Of a stretch of DNA of 39,324 nt, positions 3,459 through 15,138 are shown piece after piece. The DNA comes from a virus (taxonomy: Duplodnaviria > Caudoviricetes): IMG/VR virus record IMGVR_UViG_3300032272_000039, positions 1 through 39,324 of that record. One strand, given 5' to 3'. How positions within the stretch are numbered: the stretch's first letter is position 1; each line of letters opens with the position of its first letter. Under the pieces are notes generated by a model. That model did no database searches, had not been told where the DNA came from, and worked only from the letters and a program-made list of their open reading frames with translations. The translations under genes and the position numbers were made by a program.

Positions 3459-4205
3459 TTAAGTTAAGTTGATGCCCTCTTTGATGAGGGATTTTCTCTC
3501 AGATTCCGGTTTTGCCAGAAAGTCAGAGCGCTTCATTGTTGTGCCGGTAGCACCGCCACCTTTACCATTTGAGCCATCAGCACCGCCGCCGCTCCCTTTG
3601 CTTCCAACAATAATGCTGGAAAAAGATTTGTCGTTGTAGAATTCATTTCGCAAATCGTCAAGACTCAAAGCACTTGGCTTACCATCTTGCGACAAGACTC
3701 TGGTTGATGCCCCATTCTCTCCTATCTCGCTTTTAAGGCGTTTTTGGATGTGGGGGAGGATAACAGCCGCGTTTTCGCCTGCGAGGTTTGCAGCGAGCTT
3801 GTGGGCTTCCTGGTTAACCGTGAGGTCAGAAATCATTCCGTCACGCCTTTTTATTTCGGCCTGAAGCGATTCCTGAAGCTTCTCCCTCTGTTCGATGTGA
3901 CTCTTTTCGATTGCCTCCCAATCGCCCGACTTCTTAGCGGCGTCGAGTTCAAGCTGTCGCTTCTGCTCTGCGATGGCGTCTCTTTCAGCCTTTCGCTCAT
4001 CCTCCAAAGACTTCAAGCGCTCGGTGAGGCTTTCGAGTTCTGCGGATTTCTCCTGCTTTGAGTCTTTTTCTCTTTGCTTCGCTCTCAAGAGAGCATCTGG
4101 CGTTTGAAAGTTGTACTTTCCGGACTCTTCATCCTTCGCGTACATGCCTTGATAAGGTTCATCGATCCCGTCTAGGGAATCCGTTACTAACGGTAGGTTT
4201 TCCAT
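3459..4205 (-). CDS. Capsid scaffolding protein
   Basis: Charged coiled coil, ILPHIQKRL motif and Gly-rich C-terminus (GSKGSGGGADG); directly upstream of the capsid gene. Confidence 0.85.
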   Translation of the reverse strand: MENLPLVTDSLDGIDEPYQGMYAKDEESGKYNFQTPDALLRAKQREKDSKQEKSAELESLTERLKSLEDERKAERDAIAEQKRQLELDAAKKSGDWEAIEKSHIEQREKLQESLQAEIKRRDGMISDLTVNQEAHKLAANLAGENAAVILPHIQKRLKSEIGENGASTRVLSQDGKPSALSLDDLRNEFYNDKSFSSIIVGSKGSGGGADGSNGKGGGATGTTMKRSDFLAKPESERKSLIKEGINLT

Positions 4206-4244
4206 ATTTCAGTATTTATTGAAAGTTCTGTTGATTTGTCAAAA

Positions 4245-4667
4245 CTAGACTTCTACTCCGGCCCTCTCGAATACCTCCGGCGCCTTGGCTTGCATCTCGT
4301 CGAGCGTGAGAGGTTCAAAGTTGCGGTTGAGATTCAGCTTTGCGAATTCGTCAGCGCTCAAGCCTCCATTGCGAAGGAGATTGCCCCTCGTCTTCCCTAT
4401 TGCTGAATCCTGGAATCCCTTTGGCTGCTTCTTGAGCCATGAGTAATAAGTCTCATTCGCATCGACTGGACCGTCTACGCTCGCCCTCGTCGCTCCCTCA
4501 TCTAGGAAATCAAGGGATTCGTCGAGAACTGGAACTGTCGTTGATCTACAATTGTGTGTCACGAATCCATCGCAAATAAAAGTCTCATCGCCATCAACGG
4601 ACAAGTTGTAGACTTTTCCATTGTAACTCTCCTCTACAGTCGTTTTGATAGTCACGGTACTAAACAT
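4245..4667 (-). CDS. Minor head protein (gpF/SPP1 gp7-like) C-terminal half fused to Int-C of a split intein
   Basis: MFSTVTIKTTVEESYNGKVYNLSVDGDETFICDGFVTHN|CRSTTVP contains intein blocks F and G and Cys+1, followed by the gpF-type GATRAS...TYYSWLKKQP...Q..G.TR. Start at ATG 4667 (39-aa Int-C) is inferred; the ORF is open to 4742. Confidence 0.85.
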   Translation of the reverse strand: MFSTVTIKTTVEESYNGKVYNLSVDGDETFICDGFVTHNCRSTTVPVLDESLDFLDEGATRASVDGPVDANETYYSWLKKQPKGFQDSAIGKTRGNLLRNGGLSADEFAKLNLNRNFEPLTLDEMQAKAPEVFERAGVEV

Positions 4668-5591
4668 GACACTAAAAACATTAAATCTATGAAGAAGAAC
4701 ATCAGCGATGAGACGATAAAGGAACTTATTAAAATTGAGCATTATCAGAATGGTAAAAGCTTAAGACGGATTGAGCGTGAAAACTCCCTTTCAAATGATA
4801 CCATAAGAAAGAGGTGTATTAAAATGGGTATTGAAACAAAAAGCAGAATCAAATCCATAAACGATAATATGAAGTATGTCGATGTTCCAAGTGGAGATAA
4901 CCACTGGATATCAAAAAGGCCAGAAGACGGCAAGAAACTAGCATTGATACACTCTAAGAGAATGAAGAGCAACAATCCTTCGAACGATTCTGAAATATTG
5001 ATACGCATAGCGAAATCTAAAGCTAAGACATATTCACAAAACCCAACGCCACATGAACTTATGTTTAAGGAATTTCTGAAATCTGAAAAAATTCCGTTTG
5101 ATTTTCAATACCGTGTTGATCGCTTTATATCTGATTTCAGAATATCCAACTGCCTTATCGAGCTTGATGGAAGAGGCCATGGCTCCAGGAAGCCTACTGA
5201 CATCGTAAGAGATAAGTTTCTCTGTGGTCTTGGTTGGAATGTTGTGAGAATTGATCAGGATAACATGTTCAATAAAAGGAGCAAAAAACCTGTTTTTAAT
5301 GCAAAAAAACTTATGCAGGTTCTTGAAGAGTACATCTCCTGGATTGATGTCTCCCGCTCGCTTCCAGCCACCCTTAGCACTAAGCATAGGGTGATCGTCC
5401 GTCAAAGATATACTTCTTCCGAAGCCATCCACTAACTTCAGTACTTTCTCATCTGGATGCCTATCTCTGCTCATGACAGCAGTTACGGGCATCCATCTTC
5501 CCATGTGCGTAAGCACCAAGTCCCCGACCATGATATTCTCTATGGGAATCTTGCCCCGATTAGAGGTGATTAATCCCCCTTGTGCTATAGC
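4551..5591 (-). mobile_element. Split intein plus antisense endonuclease inserted at HYN|CRS of the minor head gene
   Basis: 1041 nt (347 codons) between PPIHYN and CRST. Block A AIAQGGLI, block B LTDDHPML, block F VYNLSV, block G FVTHN. Five in-frame stops lie between the halves. Confidence 0.9.
4689..5435 (+). CDS. Putative homing endonuclease, Vsr/DUF559-like PD-(D/E)XK nuclease with N-terminal HTH-like region
   Basis: PTPHE...FQYRVDRFISDF...LIELDGRGH...DIVRDKFLCGLGWNVVRI motif series; HTH-like GKSLRRIERENSLSNDTIRKRC; AT-rich. ATG 4689 is the likely start (track ORF starts at 4554). Confidence 0.85.
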   Translation: MKKNISDETIKELIKIEHYQNGKSLRRIERENSLSNDTIRKRCIKMGIETKSRIKSINDNMKYVDVPSGDNHWISKRPEDGKKLALIHSKRMKSNNPSNDSEILIRIAKSKAKTYSQNPTPHELMFKEFLKSEKIPFDFQYRVDRFISDFRISNCLIELDGRGHGSRKPTDIVRDKFLCGLGWNVVRIDQDNMFNKRSKKPVFNAKKLMQVLEEYISWIDVSRSLPATLSTKHRVIVRQRYTSSEAIH

Positions 5592-6356
5592 GTTGTAATG
5601 AATTGGCGGAACAGGACCCTGCCCTACAATATACCTATTATTACTGAGCGAGCGACACTGACTGGACGTTCTGCCATCGAGCGTCGAAACCCATTCGTAT
5701 TTTTCAATTATGTCAGAATTGGCGTTCCATGTCTGCTCTCTTGATCTCTGAGAAACGTGCTGCGTTGCGGTTCTGACCTGCGCTTCAATCCGTCTCTTTG
5801 CTTGCTGAGTGTAACCGTCGCTGTAGTTGGCGACTCTAGTTCCCCTGATTCGGCTTACCATCTGAGGGATCGTGAGCCCGTCTGAGTAACCGATTTGCAC
5901 GACGTTAACCAATTGGCTTTGCTCGTTCGCGGTCATCGTTGACCAAAACTTTTTCATAAAATTCCCCGTTGCTCTGATCGGCTGATTATTCGCGAACGAC
6001 ATCGCCGCTCCACTCGCAGGGGTCGCAACGGTTGCACCCTTCGTTACCGATTCAATCGCCTTCACCTCAAAGCCTGCCTGCTGCTCTGATAGCTTTGCGA
6101 GATCGACGTTGAGAGCTTCGACCTGATCGCCGATAGACTTGCCCGCAATAGCCCTGAGGTTAACCGTGAGCGCGTTGAGTTGCTTCTTGGTTAGTTGGTT
6201 CATGCGCTCAATATCAAGCGACATGACGGCGATTCCAGCGTCCCTTCCGAGCTTAACGATAACCTTTGTAAACTCATTAACCCGCCCGTTTTTGTAGCCC
6301 TCAAGAAATACTTGATTCCTAATCTCTATATCTTGGAGCTGTTCGTTTTGAGCCAT
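5034..6356 (-). CDS. Minor head protein N-terminal half (255-aa extein) fused to Int-N
   Basis: VRTATQHVS, WVSTLDGRTSSQCRSL and GPVPPIHYN motifs, then a Hint N-terminal region (IPIENIMVGDLVLTH, TDDHPM, GWKRAGDINPGD). Confidence 0.9.
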   Translation of the reverse strand: MAQNEQLQDIEIRNQVFLEGYKNGRVNEFTKVIVKLGRDAGIAVMSLDIERMNQLTKKQLNALTVNLRAIAGKSIGDQVEALNVDLAKLSEQQAGFEVKAIESVTKGATVATPASGAAMSFANNQPIRATGNFMKKFWSTMTANEQSQLVNVVQIGYSDGLTIPQMVSRIRGTRVANYSDGYTQQAKRRIEAQVRTATQHVSQRSREQTWNANSDIIEKYEWVSTLDGRTSSQCRSLSNNRYIVGQGPVPPIHYNAIAQGGLITSNRGKIPIENIMVGDLVLTHMGRWMPVTAVMSRDRHPDEKVLKLVDGFGRSISLTDDHPMLSAKGGWKRAGDINPGDVLFKNLHKFFCIKNRFFAPFIEHVILINSHNIPTKTTEKLISYDVSRLPGAMASSIKLDKAVGYSEIRYKAINTVLKIKRNFFRFQKFLKHKFMWRWVL

Positions 6357-6803
6357 TTAATTAAAAACCTTTTCCCAATTACTGAGAACCCATCCCAGGA
6401 CTAAAACCGCCATGCCGTAGTAAACGCCCATTTTCCACTGCTTCCGGTCGAGCTCTTCCAGCTTTTTTTTTTGATCAACCTGATCCCTCTTAAGGTCTTT
6501 CATTTGGTCAATGACGCCTGGCTGATCGTATTCAGGGTTTCCAGTGATAACGGTTTTGATGCTGTGCAATTCAACCGCCAATTTCTCCGTGTTCCTCGCT
6601 TGCTCATCCTGAGTGTCTTTGATTTCTTTCACTAGTTCAAAAAGCGTTCCGAATCTTTTATCATTCTTTTTGTCGCCTTCGCCTACTAGGTAAAGAATTG
6701 CTGAGAGAGCATCCGCGTTGTCGTGGTCGCTGTCTCTTATATTTGCCAGCGTTTTCTCGTACTGGCCTTTTACGGTCTTTGGTAAGTCACTCATGGTAAA
6801 CAC
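6357..6803 (-). CDS. Coiled-coil protein with a C-terminal transmembrane helix (possible holin/lysis accessory)
   Basis: Heptad-rich body and hydrophobic tail MGVYYGMAVLVLGWVL. Function inferred only; start could be ATG 6794. Confidence 0.55.
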   Translation of the reverse strand: MFTMSDLPKTVKGQYEKTLANIRDSDHDNADALSAILYLVGEGDKKNDKRFGTLFELVKEIKDTQDEQARNTEKLAVELHSIKTVITGNPEYDQPGVIDQMKDLKRDQVDQKKKLEELDRKQWKMGVYYGMAVLVLGWVLSNWEKVFN

Positions 6804-6807
6804 TCAA

Positions 6808-7287
6808 TCAAAATTTATGCTTCATTGGTCTTCCTGCAAGATAGAACCACGCCACATTTGACGCAAACGAATACATGAATGGGAAAAGGGCGACGTGCCT
6901 TGCTGTCGATAAGGGGATCTCTGGAATCACGTACTCAGTGAGTTTCGCTTTATCGAAAGAGAACCATGCGAAGAAACCTTGATCCTTTGGCACGAAGAAG
7001 TGAATGCAGACATCGGAGAGCATCGGCAGAACAAGCGGAGAAACCACGATGAAGACGCAAGTCACGGCGAACATCCGGTAAATCCAAGGACCGCCGAGAT
7101 TGCTCAACTCTGAAGCGGATTGCCTGATCAATTGCCACCTCGTAAGCTCCAGCGCATCTTTCTCCTTTTGTGCCTGCTGGGAACGTGCGAGGGCTGAAGT
7201 CACCATGCCGAGCAACCGCATACCGACCTGAGCGCCTGCGCCTGCGCCTCCTAATGCTGCGACTGTTCCAATGGTTCCTAAATCCAT
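6808..7287 (-). CDS. Membrane protein (holin candidate)
   Basis: 159 aa with two to three hydrophobic segments and a short basic C-terminus. Confidence 0.55.
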   Translation of the reverse strand: MDLGTIGTVAALGGAGAGAQVGMRLLGMVTSALARSQQAQKEKDALELTRWQLIRQSASELSNLGGPWIYRMFAVTCVFIVVSPLVLPMLSDVCIHFFVPKDQGFFAWFSFDKAKLTEYVIPEIPLSTARHVALFPFMYSFASNVAWFYLAGRPMKHKF

Positions 7288-7362
7288 ATCAAAAGCCTAA
7301 GGCACCTCTACGTGGTCTGGTATGGTTGATTTGATTGTGCTCATAATTCGGAGAGGTCCATT

Positions 7363-8100
7363 TTAAAAAGGGAACGCCGCCGACAGGTAATCTTGCAGGT
7401 CGGATCTCTGTTGAGCGGTTAGGTCTGCCTCGCAAACAATAAGAGAGCCCATTATTCCGTTAAAATATTCGACCGCACCTCCTCCGCTATTTAACCCGCT
7501 CCCAATATAGGTCGCGTTATCGACTAGGTTGGGGGTTGTTGTGTTGGTTGAGCCTGAGGACTGGGCCACGTTATCGAACCACATTTCTCCCTCGTCGTAC
7601 TGGTCGCCAGACTCCCGCTGTCCCGACACGATTAAATCACCAGTTCCTAAGCTTGTAAAAACCTGAGATCCATTATTATAGCGATAGGACCCGTCAGTTG
7701 CGACGGCTATGTTTTTACCCGCATTGGTGCCTGAGGATTCGCCCACATGGATGAATCTATCATTATCATCGTTGACATCACACTTAAGAACAGCAGCAAA
7801 GAAAAAATCAGGGTTTCCGGTAAGTCCTAGTGCATCCGATCGCTCCATTTTATTTGATCCGGAAAAATCAAGTCCGTTGACTCCGCCAATCGTTCGGGTG
7901 CCCGTCGTTGGTCTACTCGACCCGCTCGCCGTCACGTGGTTTCCATTTCCGCTCTTGTCATCCCACTGACTAACTAACCCGCTCGATTCAGTTATTGTCG
8001 ATGCGTCTGAAGCATCCAGCCAGAGCAGGAGATTCGGCAGATCCAGCGGGGTGAACGCCCCGCCCGTAAATCTATAAGGATTAACATAAATCGTGCTCAT
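7363..8100 (-). CDS. LamG/concanavalin-like virion accessory protein
   Basis: LLLWLDASDASTIT...VSQWDDKSGNGNH, YFNGIMGSLIV and LQDYL motifs. Start set at ATG 8100 (MSTIYVNPYRF). Confidence 0.75.
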   Translation of the reverse strand: MSTIYVNPYRFTGGAFTPLDLPNLLLWLDASDASTITESSGLVSQWDDKSGNGNHVTASGSSRPTTGTRTIGGVNGLDFSGSNKMERSDALGLTGNPDFFFAAVLKCDVNDDNDRFIHVGESSGTNAGKNIAVATDGSYRYNNGSQVFTSLGTGDLIVSGQRESGDQYDEGEMWFDNVAQSSGSTNTTTPNLVDNATYIGSGLNSGGGAVEYFNGIMGSLIVCEADLTAQQRSDLQDYLSAAFPF

Positions 8101-8132
8101 ATACTCTTCGTGTACATTGAGGATTGGCGGGA

Positions 8133-8678
8133 TTACTCTTTCTCCCATCCTAGCGAGAGGTCGGGTTCGTTGCCGTCTGCGAGATCCTGGATTTTAGACC
8201 TTACCAATGCATCATTTTTCCAGAGCTTTACGCCTAGGGCTTTGCACCGATTCGCAATTACCTGCTCTTTTGCGTTAAGAGTCTGACCGTCGATATTCCT
8301 GAAGATCACCGCAAGCCCAAGCATTATAAGCTTTTCTCGTTGGTCGTAAGGAACAAGGCTTTCGTGAGCATTTCGCTCCTCGGCTTCGACTGCTGCGTTA
8401 ATGTCCTCAAGCGGTCGCTTCTCGGTGTTATAGGTCTTGGTTAGCGTGTTTGCTTCTGCGTCAACTTCCTCGGTTCCTATTAGCTTGTGAGTTCTCGAAT
8501 CGTAGTCAGGTTTTGCCCCTTCCGATTGCAAGAGATAAACGTAATTTGGATCTGCTCCGGGTTGCGGTGATCCGTCAAGAGTCGGCCATTGCTTGTTTCG
8601 GCCAACGATTTCTCCGGTGTCCACTCTTAGGACTGCCCATACTGTGTTCTCTACGTCTACTGGATATGTAATTGCCAT
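8133..8678 (-). CDS. Hypothetical protein (possible fibre assembly chaperone)
   Basis: 181-aa ORF in a tightly packed operon; KPDYDSRTHKL resembles fibre-chaperone motifs. Confidence 0.6.
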   Translation of the reverse strand: MAITYPVDVENTVWAVLRVDTGEIVGRNKQWPTLDGSPQPGADPNYVYLLQSEGAKPDYDSRTHKLIGTEEVDAEANTLTKTYNTEKRPLEDINAAVEAEERNAHESLVPYDQREKLIMLGLAVIFRNIDGQTLNAKEQVIANRCKALGVKLWKNDALVRSKIQDLADGNEPDLSLGWEKE

Positions 8679-8680
8679 GA

Positions 8681-9172
8681 TTAAGTTCTGGTTCCTATTA
8701 GATAAATTTTAGCCCCCTTTGGAGCGGTTGTTGATACTGCGTCGATGTCGATTGTGATAATCGCTTTATCGGCTAAAGCGGTATCTGTGAGTGTTGCTGT
8801 TCCGTCGTCGATTGTGGCAGTGGTGAGGATGTCGAGCTTGTTCGTCGTCATGATCGACGTTCCGCCATCGTTGATATCGAATATCGTCGTTCCCGTCGTC
8901 CCTGCTGTTGTGACTGAGGCCCTGACTTCCGAGAGAGTCATTGCGTAAGGCATACGAAAAGTCGTCTTTGCCGTGCCTGTGGTTAGGTCCGTCGTCTCGT
9001 CGCTGATTGCGATCATCAGGACTTCACCTCCAAGCTTCCTGACCTCGCCAACTGTCATTTTCTTGGACCTGGCAATACCCGATTCGCCGATGTCCCAAAT
9101 GTAAATAAGATCGGTATCAACCGCGTTTGCCGCCGTGAGAGCTGTAAGTCCTTCTACGTTTCCATCTGCCAT
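8681..9172 (-). CDS. Virion fibre/decoration-like protein
   Basis: Thr-rich beta-type sequence (SDETTDLTTGTAKTTFRMPYAMTLSEVRASV...ITIDID...GAKIYLIG). Confidence 0.65.
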   Translation of the reverse strand: MADGNVEGLTALTAANAVDTDLIYIWDIGESGIARSKKMTVGEVRKLGGEVLMIAISDETTDLTTGTAKTTFRMPYAMTLSEVRASVTTAGTTGTTIFDINDGGTSIMTTNKLDILTTATIDDGTATLTDTALADKAIITIDIDAVSTTAPKGAKIYLIGTRT

Positions 9173-9176
9173 TTAA

Positions 9177-9854
9177 TTAATCACCGAGCGTTAAGAAGCT
9201 CGTTCCGTCTCCAAGTGAAAGTTTGCTGCTGCCATCGCCGAGAAGCAGGAATGAGCTGGTTGGCGTTGTAACGCTTAATGTTCCGTCTATGCCACCTTGC
9301 CCATTTAGTGAGCCCGAAAGGATCTTTGATAGAGAGAGCGTTCCGTCGAGGCCCCCAACTCCATCGAGCGAGCCCGTTAGTAATTTTGTGAGAGCAATCG
9401 TTCCGCTCACCCCGCCAGAACCGTCTATAGATCCGGCTAACAGCTTCGTTAATGCGAGGTTGCCATTGATCCCACCAACTCCGTCTAGAGAACCCGATAT
9501 TATCTTCGTTATATTCAGTGTTCCCGATGTTCCGCCGACTCCATCTAATGAGCCGCCGAGACCGTCGATATTTACAGACAGCGCCCCTTGTAATCCACCG
9601 ACGCCATCGAGAGAACCAGCCAATCCTTTGACTATTGTGAGTTGTCCGGTCAATCCACCGACGCCATCCAATGAACCAGCAATGTGCTTTTCTATGGCTA
9701 ATACACCAATCAAGCCGCCTTGCCCATCGAGCGAGCCCCTGAATCGTACTCCCTCCTGAAGAACCTTCACGCAAAGCAGAATAGCAGAAGACCCCGGCAC
9801 CGTTAAGGTAGCCGATGCCGTTGGAACTGATAAAACTGCTGAAACGCATGACAT
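9177..9854 (-). CDS. Gly-rich repeat fibre-like protein
   Basis: Eight 20-21-aa repeats of GSLDGxGGxxGxL. Confidence 0.75.
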   Translation of the reverse strand: MSCVSAVLSVPTASATLTVPGSSAILLCVKVLQEGVRFRGSLDGQGGLIGVLAIEKHIAGSLDGVGGLTGQLTIVKGLAGSLDGVGGLQGALSVNIDGLGGSLDGVGGTSGTLNITKIISGSLDGVGGINGNLALTKLLAGSIDGSGGVSGTIALTKLLTGSLDGVGGLDGTLSLSKILSGSLNGQGGIDGTLSVTTPTSSFLLLGDGSSKLSLGDGTSFLTLGD

Positions 9855-9860
9855 TTAAGG

Positions 9861-10262
9861 TTAAGAGAGCGTGCCAAATAGTGTTCCTGCGTCGAATTGA
9901 ACAGTGTTTCCGCTTTCCGGTGATTGGGTCGAATCTAGAGCAGACCATGCGAGCATGTTTCCGCTTGTAGATGCGTCGAAAAGAGCGAACCATCCAACGG
10001 TTCCCCAGCTTCCTGAAGGAGTGGCGAATGTGATGGCATTAGCGTTGCTCTTGCTGCCACCTGATGCGGCTGGCCATTCAGTCGCGTTGTTCGTCACGCT
10101 CTTTCTTGAGTAGTTGTTTCCTGAAACTTCAGTACCTCCGCCTGCGTCGTTAGGTGCTGCCGTGAATAAGGCCACGTAAACCGTAGCTGGCGCTGTGAAT
10201 GCTGCCCCTCCTAGCCAATGGTCGAGGAGTTCGTTTTCTAAATAATCGCTATAGTCTGCCAT
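9861..10262 (-). CDS. Conserved virion structural protein
   Basis: SDYLENELLDH...YVALFTAAP...GTEVSG..YSR...WGTV...FDASTSGNML, a motif series common in phage minor structural proteins. Confidence 0.75.
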   Translation of the reverse strand: MADYSDYLENELLDHWLGGAAFTAPATVYVALFTAAPNDAGGGTEVSGNNYSRKSVTNNATEWPAASGGSKSNANAITFATPSGSWGTVGWFALFDASTSGNMLAWSALDSTQSPESGNTVQFDAGTLFGTLS

Positions 10263-10279
10263 TTGTCTTTTTGGTTAAT

Positions 10280-10684
10280 TTATGGAAATGTTGTTTTGGT
10301 TGGGCTGTTGAGTTTGATCTGGAAAGCCTTTGGCTCCTGGGTTCCGTATGTCGTATCGATGATCCAGAGTTCGCCGTAAAATGTCTTGTCTGCCGAGAAT
10401 CCAACGCCTGCTCCTGCCTGTGTGTCTACATCGTAACCGACGACAAGAGGAGCTGTCGTAATCGTAAGACTGGCGTTTGTGACATCAACCAAAGCCGCTG
10501 AATCGAGATCCGTTTTATTGGCTTTGATTAAAAGCTGAAAAGTGATCCCGCTTGCTGTGGTCGGAGTGTATCCCGCGTAAGTGATCGCCGAAAAGCTCAA
10601 AGGAATCGTTGCCCCGTATGCGTAAGGAACCTGGTCCACGTATCCGTCAACCGAGTCTGTATCTTTTACTTGATCGAGTGCCAT
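10280..10684 (-). CDS. Hypothetical structural protein
   Basis: 134 aa, beta-rich, coupled to the portal stop by a TAATG overlap. Confidence 0.65.
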   Translation of the reverse strand: MALDQVKDTDSVDGYVDQVPYAYGATIPLSFSAITYAGYTPTTASGITFQLLIKANKTDLDSAALVDVTNASLTITTAPLVVGYDVDTQAGAGVGFSADKTFYGELWIIDTTYGTQEPKAFQIKLNSPTKTTFP

Positions 10685-13526: not shown

Positions 13527-13897
13527 TCATCTTCCGGCGTAGGCAAATCAGGTGCGACCATCTCCAGGTGAGTGACTGGGATCGGACCGCCGTTCGGACC
13601 ACTGAGCTCTAAATTGTCCTTTTGCTTGAGCGTGTTTTTGCCCAGCCAAATCGCCATAGAAGCGTTTCTTTCCGCTAACTTGAACTGGGACCTTCGCAGC
13701 GACATTTTACCTAGTTGCCTGCCATTATGGGAATACTCGGAATAAGTAATCCCGTGTTCCTCCTTGCATCGATCCGCTAAAGTATCGGCATGAATCCCTA
13801 GCACTCCAGCGATTTCCTCGCATGTGCATTGAATGAAAAGCATCTTGTCAACCTGCTTCCAGTTGATCGGTTTTTTCGGTCTGCCCATCGTAGCCAT
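13523..13897 (-). CDS. terS: Terminase small subunit
   Basis: GRPKK plus HTH (CTCEEIAGVLGIHADTL), SLRRSQF, MAIWLGKN and ELSGPNGGPI; overlaps the terL start. Confidence 0.85.
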   Translation of the reverse strand: MATMGRPKKPINWKQVDKMLFIQCTCEEIAGVLGIHADTLADRCKEEHGITYSEYSHNGRQLGKMSLRRSQFKLAERNASMAIWLGKNTLKQKDNLELSGPNGGPIPVTHLEMVAPDLPTPEDE

Positions 13898-15138
13898 TAT
13901 GCTTTAACCCCTTCCAATTCCTCTATCAGTTCAGCCTTGTTCCCAGTGAACTCCTCCCATCGCTGGATGATTACGTCGCAGTAGCTTGGCGCGAATTCCA
14001 TCATAAAGCATCCTTTCCCTCTGATCTCGCAAGCTATGAGAGTTGAACCTGAGCCGCCAAACAAATCCAATACTGATTTGCATTCGTTCCCGTAATTATC
14101 AAAGCACCATTCAGCTAAGGCTATTGGCTTCTGTGTAGGGTGAACTCTTTTCTCTCCATGCTCTGACGCTTTACAGATTCCGCTCCACCGATGCTTAAAT
14201 ATCTGAACCTTTGTCTCCTGATTTGTCCATGCGAGTTCGGCATCAGCGAAAGTGCTCTCTCCTGTTTCCTTGTCCCAAACTATCCAGCAGTTTGAGTTTT
14301 CAAGCTCAGTGGCGTAGTAATTCCCACCCCAGATTATCTGCGTTTTTATTTCGAGACTCTTAATTATCTTAATGGCTTCAACGGCAGTTTCAATGCTATC
14401 GTCTCCGATTATATCGGCGTATTTATTAGCCTCGATGTGCCTACCTCCAGCCTTCTCTTTCTTGCCAGTTCCGAATGCTCCGCCGCCGCCTATCTGATTA
14501 TTAGAAACGATTTTGATACCATATGGTGGATCAGTGAACACCATATCGGCCTTCTCCCCATCCATCAGCTTTGCAACCTGCTCCTTGCTCGTCGAGTCCC
14601 CGCACATCAGCCTGTGATTCCCCAGCTTCCAAATCTGCCCTAGCTTGGCTGTCGGTTCCTCCGGCATTTCCGGCACCGCGTCTTCATCAGTAAGCCCTTC
14701 GTTCTCCGGTGCGAACTCACTCATCATATCGGCCAGATCGCCCTCCAGGAAGCCCGTAAGATCCATATCAAAGTCTCCGTCGTCTAAGTCCTCAAGAAGA
14801 TCCTTAAGCTCGCTCCTGTTGATCTCAGCGAGTTCAGAGAGGCGATTGTCGGCGATAAGGTCTGCCCATTCCTGAGCTTCTGTCTCGTAGTCTTGCCTGT
14901 CGATTGGCACGGTATCGACGCCAAGCTTGAGCGCTGCCTGGTATCGGCCATGCCCCTTGACGATGAATCCTGATCGATTTGAAACGACTATGGGAGATCG
15001 CCAACCCTGGTTCGCAATGATCTTCGCAAGTAGATCGATCTGTGATTCTGGATGCCCGTTGGGGTTCCTTGGATTCTCAACGAGAGAAGCGACTTCAGCG
15101 ATGTCTGTGTGTGAGCAGTTAATTGGGACCTCAGCCAT
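13897..15138 (-). CDS. ParB-like N-terminal domain fused to an N6A/N4C DNA methyltransferase
   Basis: NPRNP...GHGRYQAA...IADNR (ParB-N), then HRLMCGDS, FTDPPYG, HPTQKP and LDLFGGSGST. Confidence 0.93.
   Translation of the reverse strand: MAEVPINCSHTDIAEVASLVENPRNPNGHPESQIDLLAKIIANQGWRSPIVVSNRSGFIVKGHGRYQAALKLGVDTVPIDRQDYETEAQEWADLIADNRLSELAEINRSELKDLLEDLDDGDFDMDLTGFLEGDLADMMSEFAPENEGLTDEDAVPEMPEEPTAKLGQIWKLGNHRLMCGDSTSKEQVAKLMDGEKADMVFTDPPYGIKIVSNNQIGGGGAFGTGKKEKAGGRHIEANKYADIIGDDSIETAVEAIKIIKSLEIKTQIIWGGNYYATELENSNCWIVWDKETGESTFADAELAWTNQETKVQIFKHRWSGICKASEHGEKRVHPTQKPIALAEWCFDNYGNECKSVLDLFGGSGSTLIACEIRGKGCFMMEFAPSYCDVIIQRWEEFTGNKAELIEELEGVKA

Follow-up and report, generated by a model that had tools for sequence, protein, structure and literature searches.

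Organization of the split gene

The stretch of DNA analysed here (the window) comprises 39,324 nucleotides, positions 1 to 39,324 of IMG/VR record IMGVR_UViG_3300032272_000039, a tailed-phage record that is 92% complete and contains terminase, portal, scaffold, major capsid and tail genes. A first-pass annotation, made from the letters alone, had proposed that a head morphogenesis gene is broken here by a split intein, the opposite strand carrying a gene for an endonuclease between the halves. Profile matches, nine further split loci, purifying selection in relatives and a model of the two halves as a single fold all bear out this proposal.

Read on the minus strand in a single frame from position 6356 to position 4245, the gene encodes 255 amino acids ending in PPIHYN, then 347 codons, then a part of 101 amino acids that begins with CRS, which confirms the interrupted motif of the first-pass annotation. 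The insert holds five in-frame stops, every one at the place given there: TGA 5036-5034, TAG 4940-4938, TGA 4913-4911, TGA 4793-4791 and TAA 4763-4761. The two flanking parts, or exteins, abut in the phrog_241 (head morphogenesis) profile, since the N-extein (residues 1-255, positions 5592 to 6356, minus strand, delimited by the junction) matches profile positions 12-265 (E = 3e-74) and the C-extein (positions 4245 to 4550, minus strand, 101 amino acids from Cys+1 to a TAG stop) matches positions 265-366 (E = 1.2e-38). Matches to TIGR01641 (E = 1.4e-6 with the N-extein) and to PF04233, the latter found only once in this 92% complete genome, are both below cut-off because the domain is cut by the insert. 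The gene is placed in the head module, upstream of the scaffold and major capsid genes, and by profile match and position its product is a head protein of the SPP1 gp7/MuF type.

Four overlapping open reading frames (ORFs) share the locus. Two of them, of 440 and likely 165 amino acids, are the pieces of the head gene, each fused to one intein half; the third is a short frame on the same strand, hereafter called the bridge, and the fourth is the nuclease gene (positions 4689 to 5435, plus strand). The latter is codon-aligned with the intein frame and overlaps both halves, covering the last 134 or so codons of the N-half ORF, block B included. A Logan contig of run X1 (depth 14.7) shows 0 differences from the window over positions 3800-6800 (3001 bases); X1 may be the source sample of the window, and the contig is a check by re-assembly rather than independent support. 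Such support comes from the nine other distinct loci, because they show the same layout.

Intein halves and the start of the second half

The core of the N-terminal half (Int-N, about 99 amino acids, positions 5295 to 5591, minus strand) was recognized by a Hint_2 match (E = 2e-5) and by its motif table: it begins with Ala1, has T-D-D-H in block B and Met at B12, and the 3' part of its coding sequence is antisense to the C-terminus of the nuclease. It is followed by a tail of about 86 amino acids and the stop TGA 5036-5034 (positions 5034 to 5294, minus strand), antisense to the catalytic domain of the nuclease and open in all split loci. The C-terminal half (Int-C, 64 amino acids if counted from ATG 4742, positions 4551 to 4742, minus strand) contains block F with Y-N-L, Asn occupying F4, and ends in T-H-N. 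It matches TIGR01443 (intein C-terminus) above its cut-off (E = 6.3e-7), and the best PDB match of an Int-C profile is 2jmz (E = 8.2e-7), which we take to be the entry of the Methanocaldococcus jannaschii KlbA intein.

Modelled as a complex, Int-N and Int-C form one intein fold with a score of 0.77, against 0.01 for the best control; the mark applied is reached by 116 of 157 solved pairs and by 2 of 215 mismatched pairs. Separate runs agree in at least 72% of contacts, and the partner has a pLDDT value of at least 61. Passing this mark indicates likeness to an intein fold rather than binding, and it may derive from likeness to solved split inteins. Opposite charges accompany the model: in 8 of 8 loci the full Int-N carries +6 to +24, and the last 36 residues of Int-C carry -4 to -8. 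The modelled interface between the halves ends at intein residue 92, and for that reason we do not retain a folded role for the Int-N tail; one observation in favour of that idea is that silent changes in the nuclease are scarcer opposite the tail (68/220 versus 117/249).

Three starts can be considered for Int-C, ATG 4742, ATG 4667 and ATT 4751. The first-pass annotation had chosen ATG 4667, back to back with the nuclease ATG at 4689; the distance of 21 bp is correct, but the start is likelier to be ATG 4742, because ATG 4667 lies within an 8-codon insertion unique to the window locus and because the bridge ORF stops 2 nt before ATG 4742. A nuclease motif, x-G-K-S-L-R, reads in antisense as a Shine-Dalgarno-like (SD-like) motif plus ATG, GTG or TTG in all nine other split loci, versus only two of the nine contiguous loci that have the motif; at the window locus this position reads ATT (4751). 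Three codons past it, a conserved His of the nuclease is always antisense to ATG or GTG, here ATG 4742. The modelled Int-C is complete from either 4742 or 4667.

Relatives of the locus

Both kinds of allele for which the first-pass annotation had proposed a search, intein-less and contiguous, were found. The C-extein retrieved 58 viral loci, in 57 of which the motif is uninterrupted, the remaining one stopping short of the site; the insertion point lies inside the most conserved motif of the host protein. Nine loci besides the window (L059, L060, L061, L062, L088, L089, L090, L094 and L095) are split at the same site and have the antisense nuclease, which is 46-50% identical to that of the window. 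In all ten split loci Int-N and Int-C share one frame, interrupted by 5 to 13 stops. Contiguous inteins with both strands open occur in L064, L065, L067, L074, L075, L078 and L083 and in three cultured Vibrio phages, 1.082.O, 1.265.O and 1.266.O, whose alleles begin with Ala1.

Among proteins, 122 of the best 150 of 25,460 profile hits have this intein at the H-x-x site with an antisense-type tail. Contiguous forms seem to account for 105 of them, 14 end 153-194 residues into the intein, and three are unclear; the 14 short-ending proteins, P0002, P0003 and P0026 among them, are known without their DNA and some may be contig ends. L063, L066, L076, L077, L079, L091-L093 and L096-L099 were treated as duplicates or near-duplicates, most of them not being parsed singly, and L080 was left out of all counts. 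The latter has a one-base frameshift in Int-N (about 4027-5100, plus strand) that also shifts the nuclease end, reflecting either decay or a sequencing error.

Two side observations concern members of this collection. In the cultured Vibrio phages (L102-L104; MG592630, MG592631 and MG592457), a complete antisense nuclease lies unannotated in a gene annotated for its hint domain. In L066 (upstream of 4873, minus strand) and in protein P0018, a second intein is found some 35 residues upstream in the same head gene, followed by Ser+1 in L066 and by Cys+1 in P0018; the downstream intein of P0018 ends like the split type.

The antisense nuclease and homing

The Vsr/DUF559-like nuclease announced by the first-pass annotation is confirmed by a DUF559 match (E = 1.2e-8). 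Its 248 amino acids consist of a helical N-terminal half and an E-x-D-G-R-G-H catalytic domain. A single nuclease query of viral contigs gave no match, and a scan of the genome collection gave one unrelated DUF559 gene only; a query made from a nuclease alignment did find relatives. Seven homologs are 47-54% identical to it, and E123, D149, E158, D160, H164 and D171 are invariant in 8 of 8 nucleases. The homing endonuclease I-Bth0305I (3r3p) is the top PDB fold match of the nuclease model (probability 1.00, E = 1.7e-3, just short of the 0.001 mark), at about 21% identity and restricted to the catalytic domain; when sequences are compared, the DUF559-type 3hrl is the closest protein of solved structure (E = 4.1e-6). 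We therefore predict a homing enzyme.

In the nine other split loci, a near-consensus sigma-70 promoter for the nuclease, TTGA(C/T)A-18-(T/C)ATA(A/C)T with 11-12 of 12 matches, lies within the block F codons of Int-C. The corresponding position in the window (4598 to 4627, plus strand) is degenerate, CGGACA-18-TGTAAC; the best promoter match in the window reaches 8 of 12, and the SD of the nuclease is missing. A promoter scan of positions 4100-5800 gave four sites versus 2.8 expected, none of them upstream of the nuclease. Expression of the nuclease in the window phage is therefore uncertain, its ORF being intact.

Homing appears evident from sequence divergence in the contiguous Vibrio alleles L103 and L104, which differ by 1.6% inside the element and by 11.1% and 18.6% in the exteins. 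For the split form, an approximately unbiased (AU) test rejected a single extein clade of eight split hosts (p = 0.0087). We dropped this result as proof of homing, because the intein-less rows had been fetched with the window C-extein and the split may have occurred several times.

Splicing residues and intein class

Residue 1 of the window intein is Ala, as in 107 of the 122 family members; the other 15 have Ser and none has Cys, proportions that may be biased because only Ala/Ser rows went into the profile (the search also brought up Cys1 inteins that occupy this site but have no such tail). The Ser1 members are scattered and require at least 12 changes on the tree. His B10 is present in 122 of 122 members and Trp B12 in none; although Cys1 is absent throughout, the residue that activates the N-terminal junction is thus retained. 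An Asn-Cys junction was found in 19 of 19 tabulated loci, Cys+1 thus being present in every one. Among 104 contiguous members, F4 is Asn in 83, Asp in 20, unparsed in one and never Cys, and G6 is His in 89, Ser in 14 and Arg in one. The window locus has Thr B7, His B10 and Cys+1, Met at B12 and Asn at F4 (hence no WCT triplet), His at G6, and at G5 a Thr where 18 of the 19 tabulated loci have Val.

Class 2 inteins are defined as lacking a nucleophile at the N-terminus as well as the WCT triplet (PMC2807308). By this definition the window intein has a class 2 sequence signature. Class 1 does not fit, position 1 being Ala instead of Cys or Ser, and class 3 is ruled out since the obligate Cys F4 and Trp B12 are both absent. 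Cys2 was also considered as a substitute nucleophile and rejected: it is missing here and in many members, and its use would leave an extra residue in the host motif. The KlbA type has Asp F4 and Ser G6 where the window has Asn and His, and for this reason we do not file the intein as a KlbA-type member. It is predicted to work like that type, Cys+1 likely attacking the N-terminal junction directly.

According to a 2014 review (PMC4031507), all class 2 inteins are KlbA orthologs and need Asp F4. The only other non-KlbA class 2 candidate, Arth_1007, is inactive (PMC3196547). An article of 2020 (PMC7891396) states that no split class 2 intein had been reported to its date, and a review from 2025 treats trans-splicing of class 2 only broadly, with 'DnaB' as its sole example. 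In the portions available of the full-text literature on 'class 2 intein', no natural split member is named.

The question arises as to whether the halves are ligated at all. They might associate through the intein fold without ligation, with at most C-terminal cleavage, the head protein being a non-covalent pair and the intein an assembly domain. There is no nucleophile at position 1, no Cys F4 and no Asp of the KlbA kind at F4; the host protein may be dispensable; and the fractured NrdA of Aeh1 assembles non-covalently (PMC2677866). On the other hand, His B10 is invariant in 122 members and Cys+1 in the tabulated loci, the insert sits inside the most conserved motif of the host, which is unbroken in 57 of 58 intein-less loci, and cultured phages show the spread of contiguous alleles that have these residues. 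We consider a non-covalent pair unlikely.

A second open frame across the gap

The coding strand of the gap between the two halves is spanned by another frame. At the window locus this bridge ORF encodes 87 amino acids from ATG 5008 in frame +1 (positions 4745 to 5008, minus strand), the frame being open from 5104 to the stop TGA 4747-4745. A second intein-strand frame is open across the gap in all ten split loci, in frame +1 for six (window, L060, L062, L088, L089 and L090) and in frame +2 for four (L059, L061, L094 and L095). In each of the ten it opens 1-68 nt before the Int-N stop, runs past the last in-frame stop and ends 1-10 nt after the conserved Int-C start position, its own stop overlapping an Int-C-frame start (ATGA or GTGA) or preceding one by 1-2 nt. 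At the other extremity, nine of ten loci have a canonical bridge start between -11 and +4 nt relative to the Int-N stop (GTGA, TGATG, TAATG and similar). In contiguous alleles, the +1 frame stops 73-160 nt beyond the conserved Int-C start position in eight of nine cases, and a second frame open over the whole gap is seen only in the near-identical L103 and L104.

When calculated from the amino acids of each nuclease with codon use pooled, the probability of finding either frame open ranges from 0.01 to 0.37 per locus. The product over the seven more distant loci is 1.6e-7, a value that is too small since the ten loci share descent. The bridge peptides of the +1 and +2 groups are unrelated, and therefore translation itself, rather than the peptide, is the likely function: the bridge is predicted to be a relay handing ribosomes from the first half to the second. 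Opposite the catalytic domain of the nuclease, both non-intein frames hold stops in nine of ten loci, so that only frame 0 can carry ribosomes along the Int-N tail; a relay would explain why this tail is open. We also observed a Met-Ser-stop mini-ORF (positions 5021-5031, minus strand), which might help ribosomes to reinitiate on their way to the bridge: its start lies 5 nt past the first base of the Int-N stop, and 12 nt separate its end from the bridge ATG.

Two other uses of the gap have to be weighed. Since the bridge overlaps the Int-N frame at one end and outlasts the last in-frame stop at the other in all ten loci, a continuous ribosome path exists, and two frameshifts, into and out of the bridge, could produce one long precursor that splices in cis, the gene then not being truly split. 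This is improbable, because starts overlapping or adjoining the Int-N stop in nine of ten loci, and bridge stops placed at a start in ten of ten, are arranged as in coupled genes; moreover, no slippery run is shared in the last 90 nt before the Int-N stop, three of nine loci having none of the patterns tried, and two successive frameshifts would be inefficient.

Alternatively, trans-splicing may take place with Int-C translated independently, from its own ribosome site or from ATG 4667, the bridge being a by-product of antisense coding. The SD-like motif plus start codon at a conserved position in the nine other split loci speaks for such a site, a strong SD is wanting in many genes of the window phage, and the +1 antisense frame is naturally stop-poor (chance open 0.28 at the window locus). 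However, the +2 frame is stop-rich and is nevertheless open in four loci (chance 0.01-0.02 each), and three of these four lack the +1 stop close to the start but have the +2 stop. We hold independent translation to be improbable to the same degree as double frameshifting, and prefer the ribosome relay.

Selection on the halves and origin of the split

In the split pair L088/L089, non-synonymous divergence (dN) is far below synonymous divergence (dS) both for Int-N (0.026 and 0.406) and for Int-C (0.024 and 0.385). The exteins follow the same pattern when proportions of non-synonymous (pN) and synonymous (pS) differences are compared: for L060/L090, pN and pS are 0.24 and 0.69 in the N-extein and 0.21 and 0.89 in the C-extein, and for L061/L094 they are 0 and 0.14 over 63 codons of the C-extein. 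Both halves are thus under purifying selection in relatives, as far as sequence comparison can tell, and the split is maintained. Pseudogene-like decay of the exteins, named by the first-pass annotation as the outcome that would speak against its proposal, is contradicted by these values.

A dead gene, in which a head protein that the phage can do without accumulated stops by drift while the nuclease alone was maintained, is accordingly very improbable, even though gp7 is dispensable in SPP1. A single silent change of a Leu or Ser nuclease codon can create a stop in the intein frame, but the stops are confined to the gap: at eligible Leu and Ser(TCN) codons of the nuclease in eight related loci, antisense stops occupy 57 of 111 positions in the gap, opposite the N-terminal half of the nuclease, versus none of the 58 that face the Int-N tail and none of the 17 that face the Int-C extension, and the exteins outside the overlap are intact. 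Removal of the stop segment at the RNA level, reading through it under another genetic code, or an assembly error can practically be discarded, since the halves are in frame because both overlap the nuclease codon for codon, Rfam gives no match over positions 4100-6500 at E up to 1, the opposite strand of the segment codes for protein over its whole length, all three stop codons are represented, with 5-13 stops per locus, and the X1 contig agrees.

In the family tree, the split alleles are found together in one region, next to a group of contiguous ones. The idea that the split arose once, at first supported at 85/92 and 86/98, was abandoned, the support being lost once the three Vibrio alleles were added: the intein tree with these alleles has two changes, 6% of bootstrap trees having one, the nuclease tree is unresolved, and a 132-row tree requires three. 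On this unrooted tree, stops arising in a contiguous frame are the simplest reading of the origin, because most alleles are contiguous and such alleles flank the split ones on either side.

Two relatives bear on other transitions. L100 (positions 1-2020) contains an open mini-intein that has lost what lies between two L-I-E motifs of the nuclease, which provide a short shared sequence; it is known from one contig only, and represents a possible route back from the split or full form to a mini form. In L082 (about 4020-5230, plus strand), a gp7/MuF gene is interrupted, by eye, at this H-x-x|CR site by a contiguous intein that begins with Cys1 and has an in-frame Vsr/DUF559-like nuclease on the sense strand; such a counterpart would be expected had inversion or a separate invasion given rise to the antisense form.

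Proposed mechanism and its significance

With moderate confidence, we propose that the locus encodes an Ala1 split intein that trans-splices its host into a 356-amino-acid gp7/MuF-type protein by the class 2 route, the bridge relaying ribosomes. This proposal is based on sequence and models; splicing, expression and cleavage are all predicted. One late transcript would cover the operon. Ribosomes would terminate at TGA 5034, reinitiate at the bridge ATG 5008, terminate again at TGA 4745 and reinitiate at ATG 4742, which would give similar amounts of both halves without a long stretch going untranslated; since the frames used by relatives are of two unrelated kinds, the bridge peptide is probably a by-product. 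The basic Int-N would then bind the acidic Int-C, bringing together precursors of 440 and 165 amino acids, and attack by Cys+1, cyclisation of Asn and an S-N shift would yield the 356-amino-acid protein. The nuclease, expressed from the promoter inside Int-C, would cut intein-less alleles near the HxN|CRS codons and thereby spread the cassette. As for origin, stops would have been fixed opposite the N-terminal half of the nuclease in contiguous alleles open on both strands, the nuclease being retained.

Several observations weigh against this proposal. The main doubts on class 2 splicing are Asn at F4, shared with 83 of 104 contiguous members, where KlbA needs Asp (PMC4031507), and the precedent of the inactive non-KlbA candidate Arth_1007. 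Viability of the phage would be no proof of splicing, because SPP1 gp7 is dispensable, about 25% of virions being infectious without it (PMC6316719). Taken alone, the bridge of the window locus is not significant (chance 0.29) and its ATG 5008, 28 nt from the Int-N stop, is the loosest of the ten, the junctions of L060 and L061 being tighter; relatedness of the split loci makes the combined figure overstate the case, and the +1 frame is open in the contiguous L103 and L104 too. The promoter and ribosome site of the nuclease are degenerate in the window, and homing is not significant in close split pairs (1.3% versus 2.7%, p = 0.20; 10.5% versus 17.0%, p = 0.15). The selection values come from relatives, no close DNA relative of the window locus having been found, and one, two or three splitting events fit alike, neither number nor direction being fixed by the trees.

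A broader claim, to which we give even chances, is that this is the first naturally split intein of class 2 type, drawn from more than 100 non-KlbA Ala1 inteins of phage head genes, and that it is sustained by an undescribed, sequence-indifferent bridge ORF in a third frame, relaying ribosomes behind an antisense homing nuclease that stays intact; the coexistence of contiguous, split and rejoined mini forms would show that stops can split an intein whose frame is doubly coded while its nuclease is retained. Class 2 splicing has so far rested on a handful of KlbA orthologs, and the family would add a large, independent-looking set that includes cultured-phage and naturally split members, the latter being candidate ligation tools that need no nucleophile at position 1. 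The same element in contiguous, split and rejoined states would also allow a nonsense-codon route to be compared with the invasion model for the origin of split inteins. Finally, a frame whose sole role seems to be the coupling of two genes over an antisense gene, with a promoter, a start codon and three proteins in the same 1 kb, would be an extreme case of overlapping coding under selection.

Other features of the window and its relatives

About 4.3 kb of small genes (window 6357-10684, minus strand) separate the portal gene from the head morphogenesis gene, which are adjacent in relatives such as L103. Within this interval (9177-9993, minus strand), two long ORFs overlap on the same strand, one of which, of 225 amino acids, consists of G-S-L-D-G-x-G-G repeats and gave no match to PHROG at 1e-5. 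A ParB-like domain fused to a DNA methyltransferase is encoded immediately upstream of the terminase genes (13897-15138, minus strand). In L081 (about 4001-5100, plus strand), a cytosine methyltransferase-like gene has, by eye, a contiguous Cys1 intein at its catalytic P-C motif.

Comparison with known systems

Fractured genes and contiguous minor-capsid inteins with antisense nucleases are already published; in the literature available to us, their combination, a split intein with an antisense nuclease, was not found. Neither were a class 2 signature in a naturally split intein or a bridge frame with marks of translational coupling. No description of a relay frame of this kind was found in the literature on translational coupling in inteins and on antisense or opposite-strand nucleases, as judged from titles and the beginnings of abstracts, a body of literature in which subscription journals are mostly uncovered.

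The fractured genes of Dassa 2009 (PMC2677866) resemble the window in that a split intein breaks the host gene, the break falling between blocks B and F and containing a gene for a Vsr-like endonuclease, in the opposite charges of the halves and in their source, phage metagenomes. The first-pass annotation had likened the nuclease to the free-standing endonucleases of these loci. That comparison does not hold: there, the three coding regions are on one strand and the nuclease overlaps Int-C by 6-69 bp, whereas the window nuclease is antisense, codon-aligned and overlaps both halves. The gap on the coding strand, filled in the Dassa loci by the same-strand nuclease, is filled here by a separate bridge ORF; their hosts are enzymes of DNA and nucleotide metabolism and a terminase, in contrast to a virion protein; and the window data would point to stops in a contiguous allele rather than to invasion of an intein.

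A 2025 preprint (bioRxiv 10.1101/2025.01.02.630785) describes actinobacteriophage genes, those for minor capsid proteins among them, that harbour contiguous inteins with a VSR-like or LAGLIDADG endonuclease encoded in antisense. Its inteins share with the window the antisense Vsr-like nuclease, minor-capsid (IPR006528) hosts and signs of continued homing, and the structural host and the inverted nuclease, which the first-pass annotation had singled out as the unusual parts, are therefore each on record for contiguous inteins. They differ in being full and in being all scored class 1 or 3; two Gordonia examples have Cys1 and an antisense ORF that is LAGLIDADG-like (motif by eye). The contiguous frame of that type is interrupted by five stops in the window and is found in relatives such as L064, L065 and L102-L104. 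The authors expect split forms as an outcome; no split antisense allele is described in the parts consulted, and Supplemental Table 1 could list a split or Ala1 case.

The KlbA class 2 inteins of Methanocaldococcus jannaschii and orthologs (PMC2807308, PMC4031507) share with the window Ala1, Thr B7, His B10, the lack of a WCT triplet, the terminal Asn and Cys+1. They are contiguous and archaeal, with Asp F4 and Ser G6, whereas the window intein is split, lies in a phage head gene and has Asn F4 and His G6; the contiguous relatives L074, L075, L078 and L083 do have Asp F4 and Ser G6. The split class 3 intein AceL NrdHF (PMC7891396) is likewise naturally split, begins with Ala1, comes from a phage-like metagenomic contig and has a nuclease between its halves, but it uses an internal Cys F4, absent from the window, and its nuclease is of the GIY-YIG type. 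The window nuclease, for its part, resembles the I-Bth0305I/EDxHD homing endonucleases (PMC3239194) in joining an N-terminal helical region to a putative Vsr-like domain at the C-terminus.

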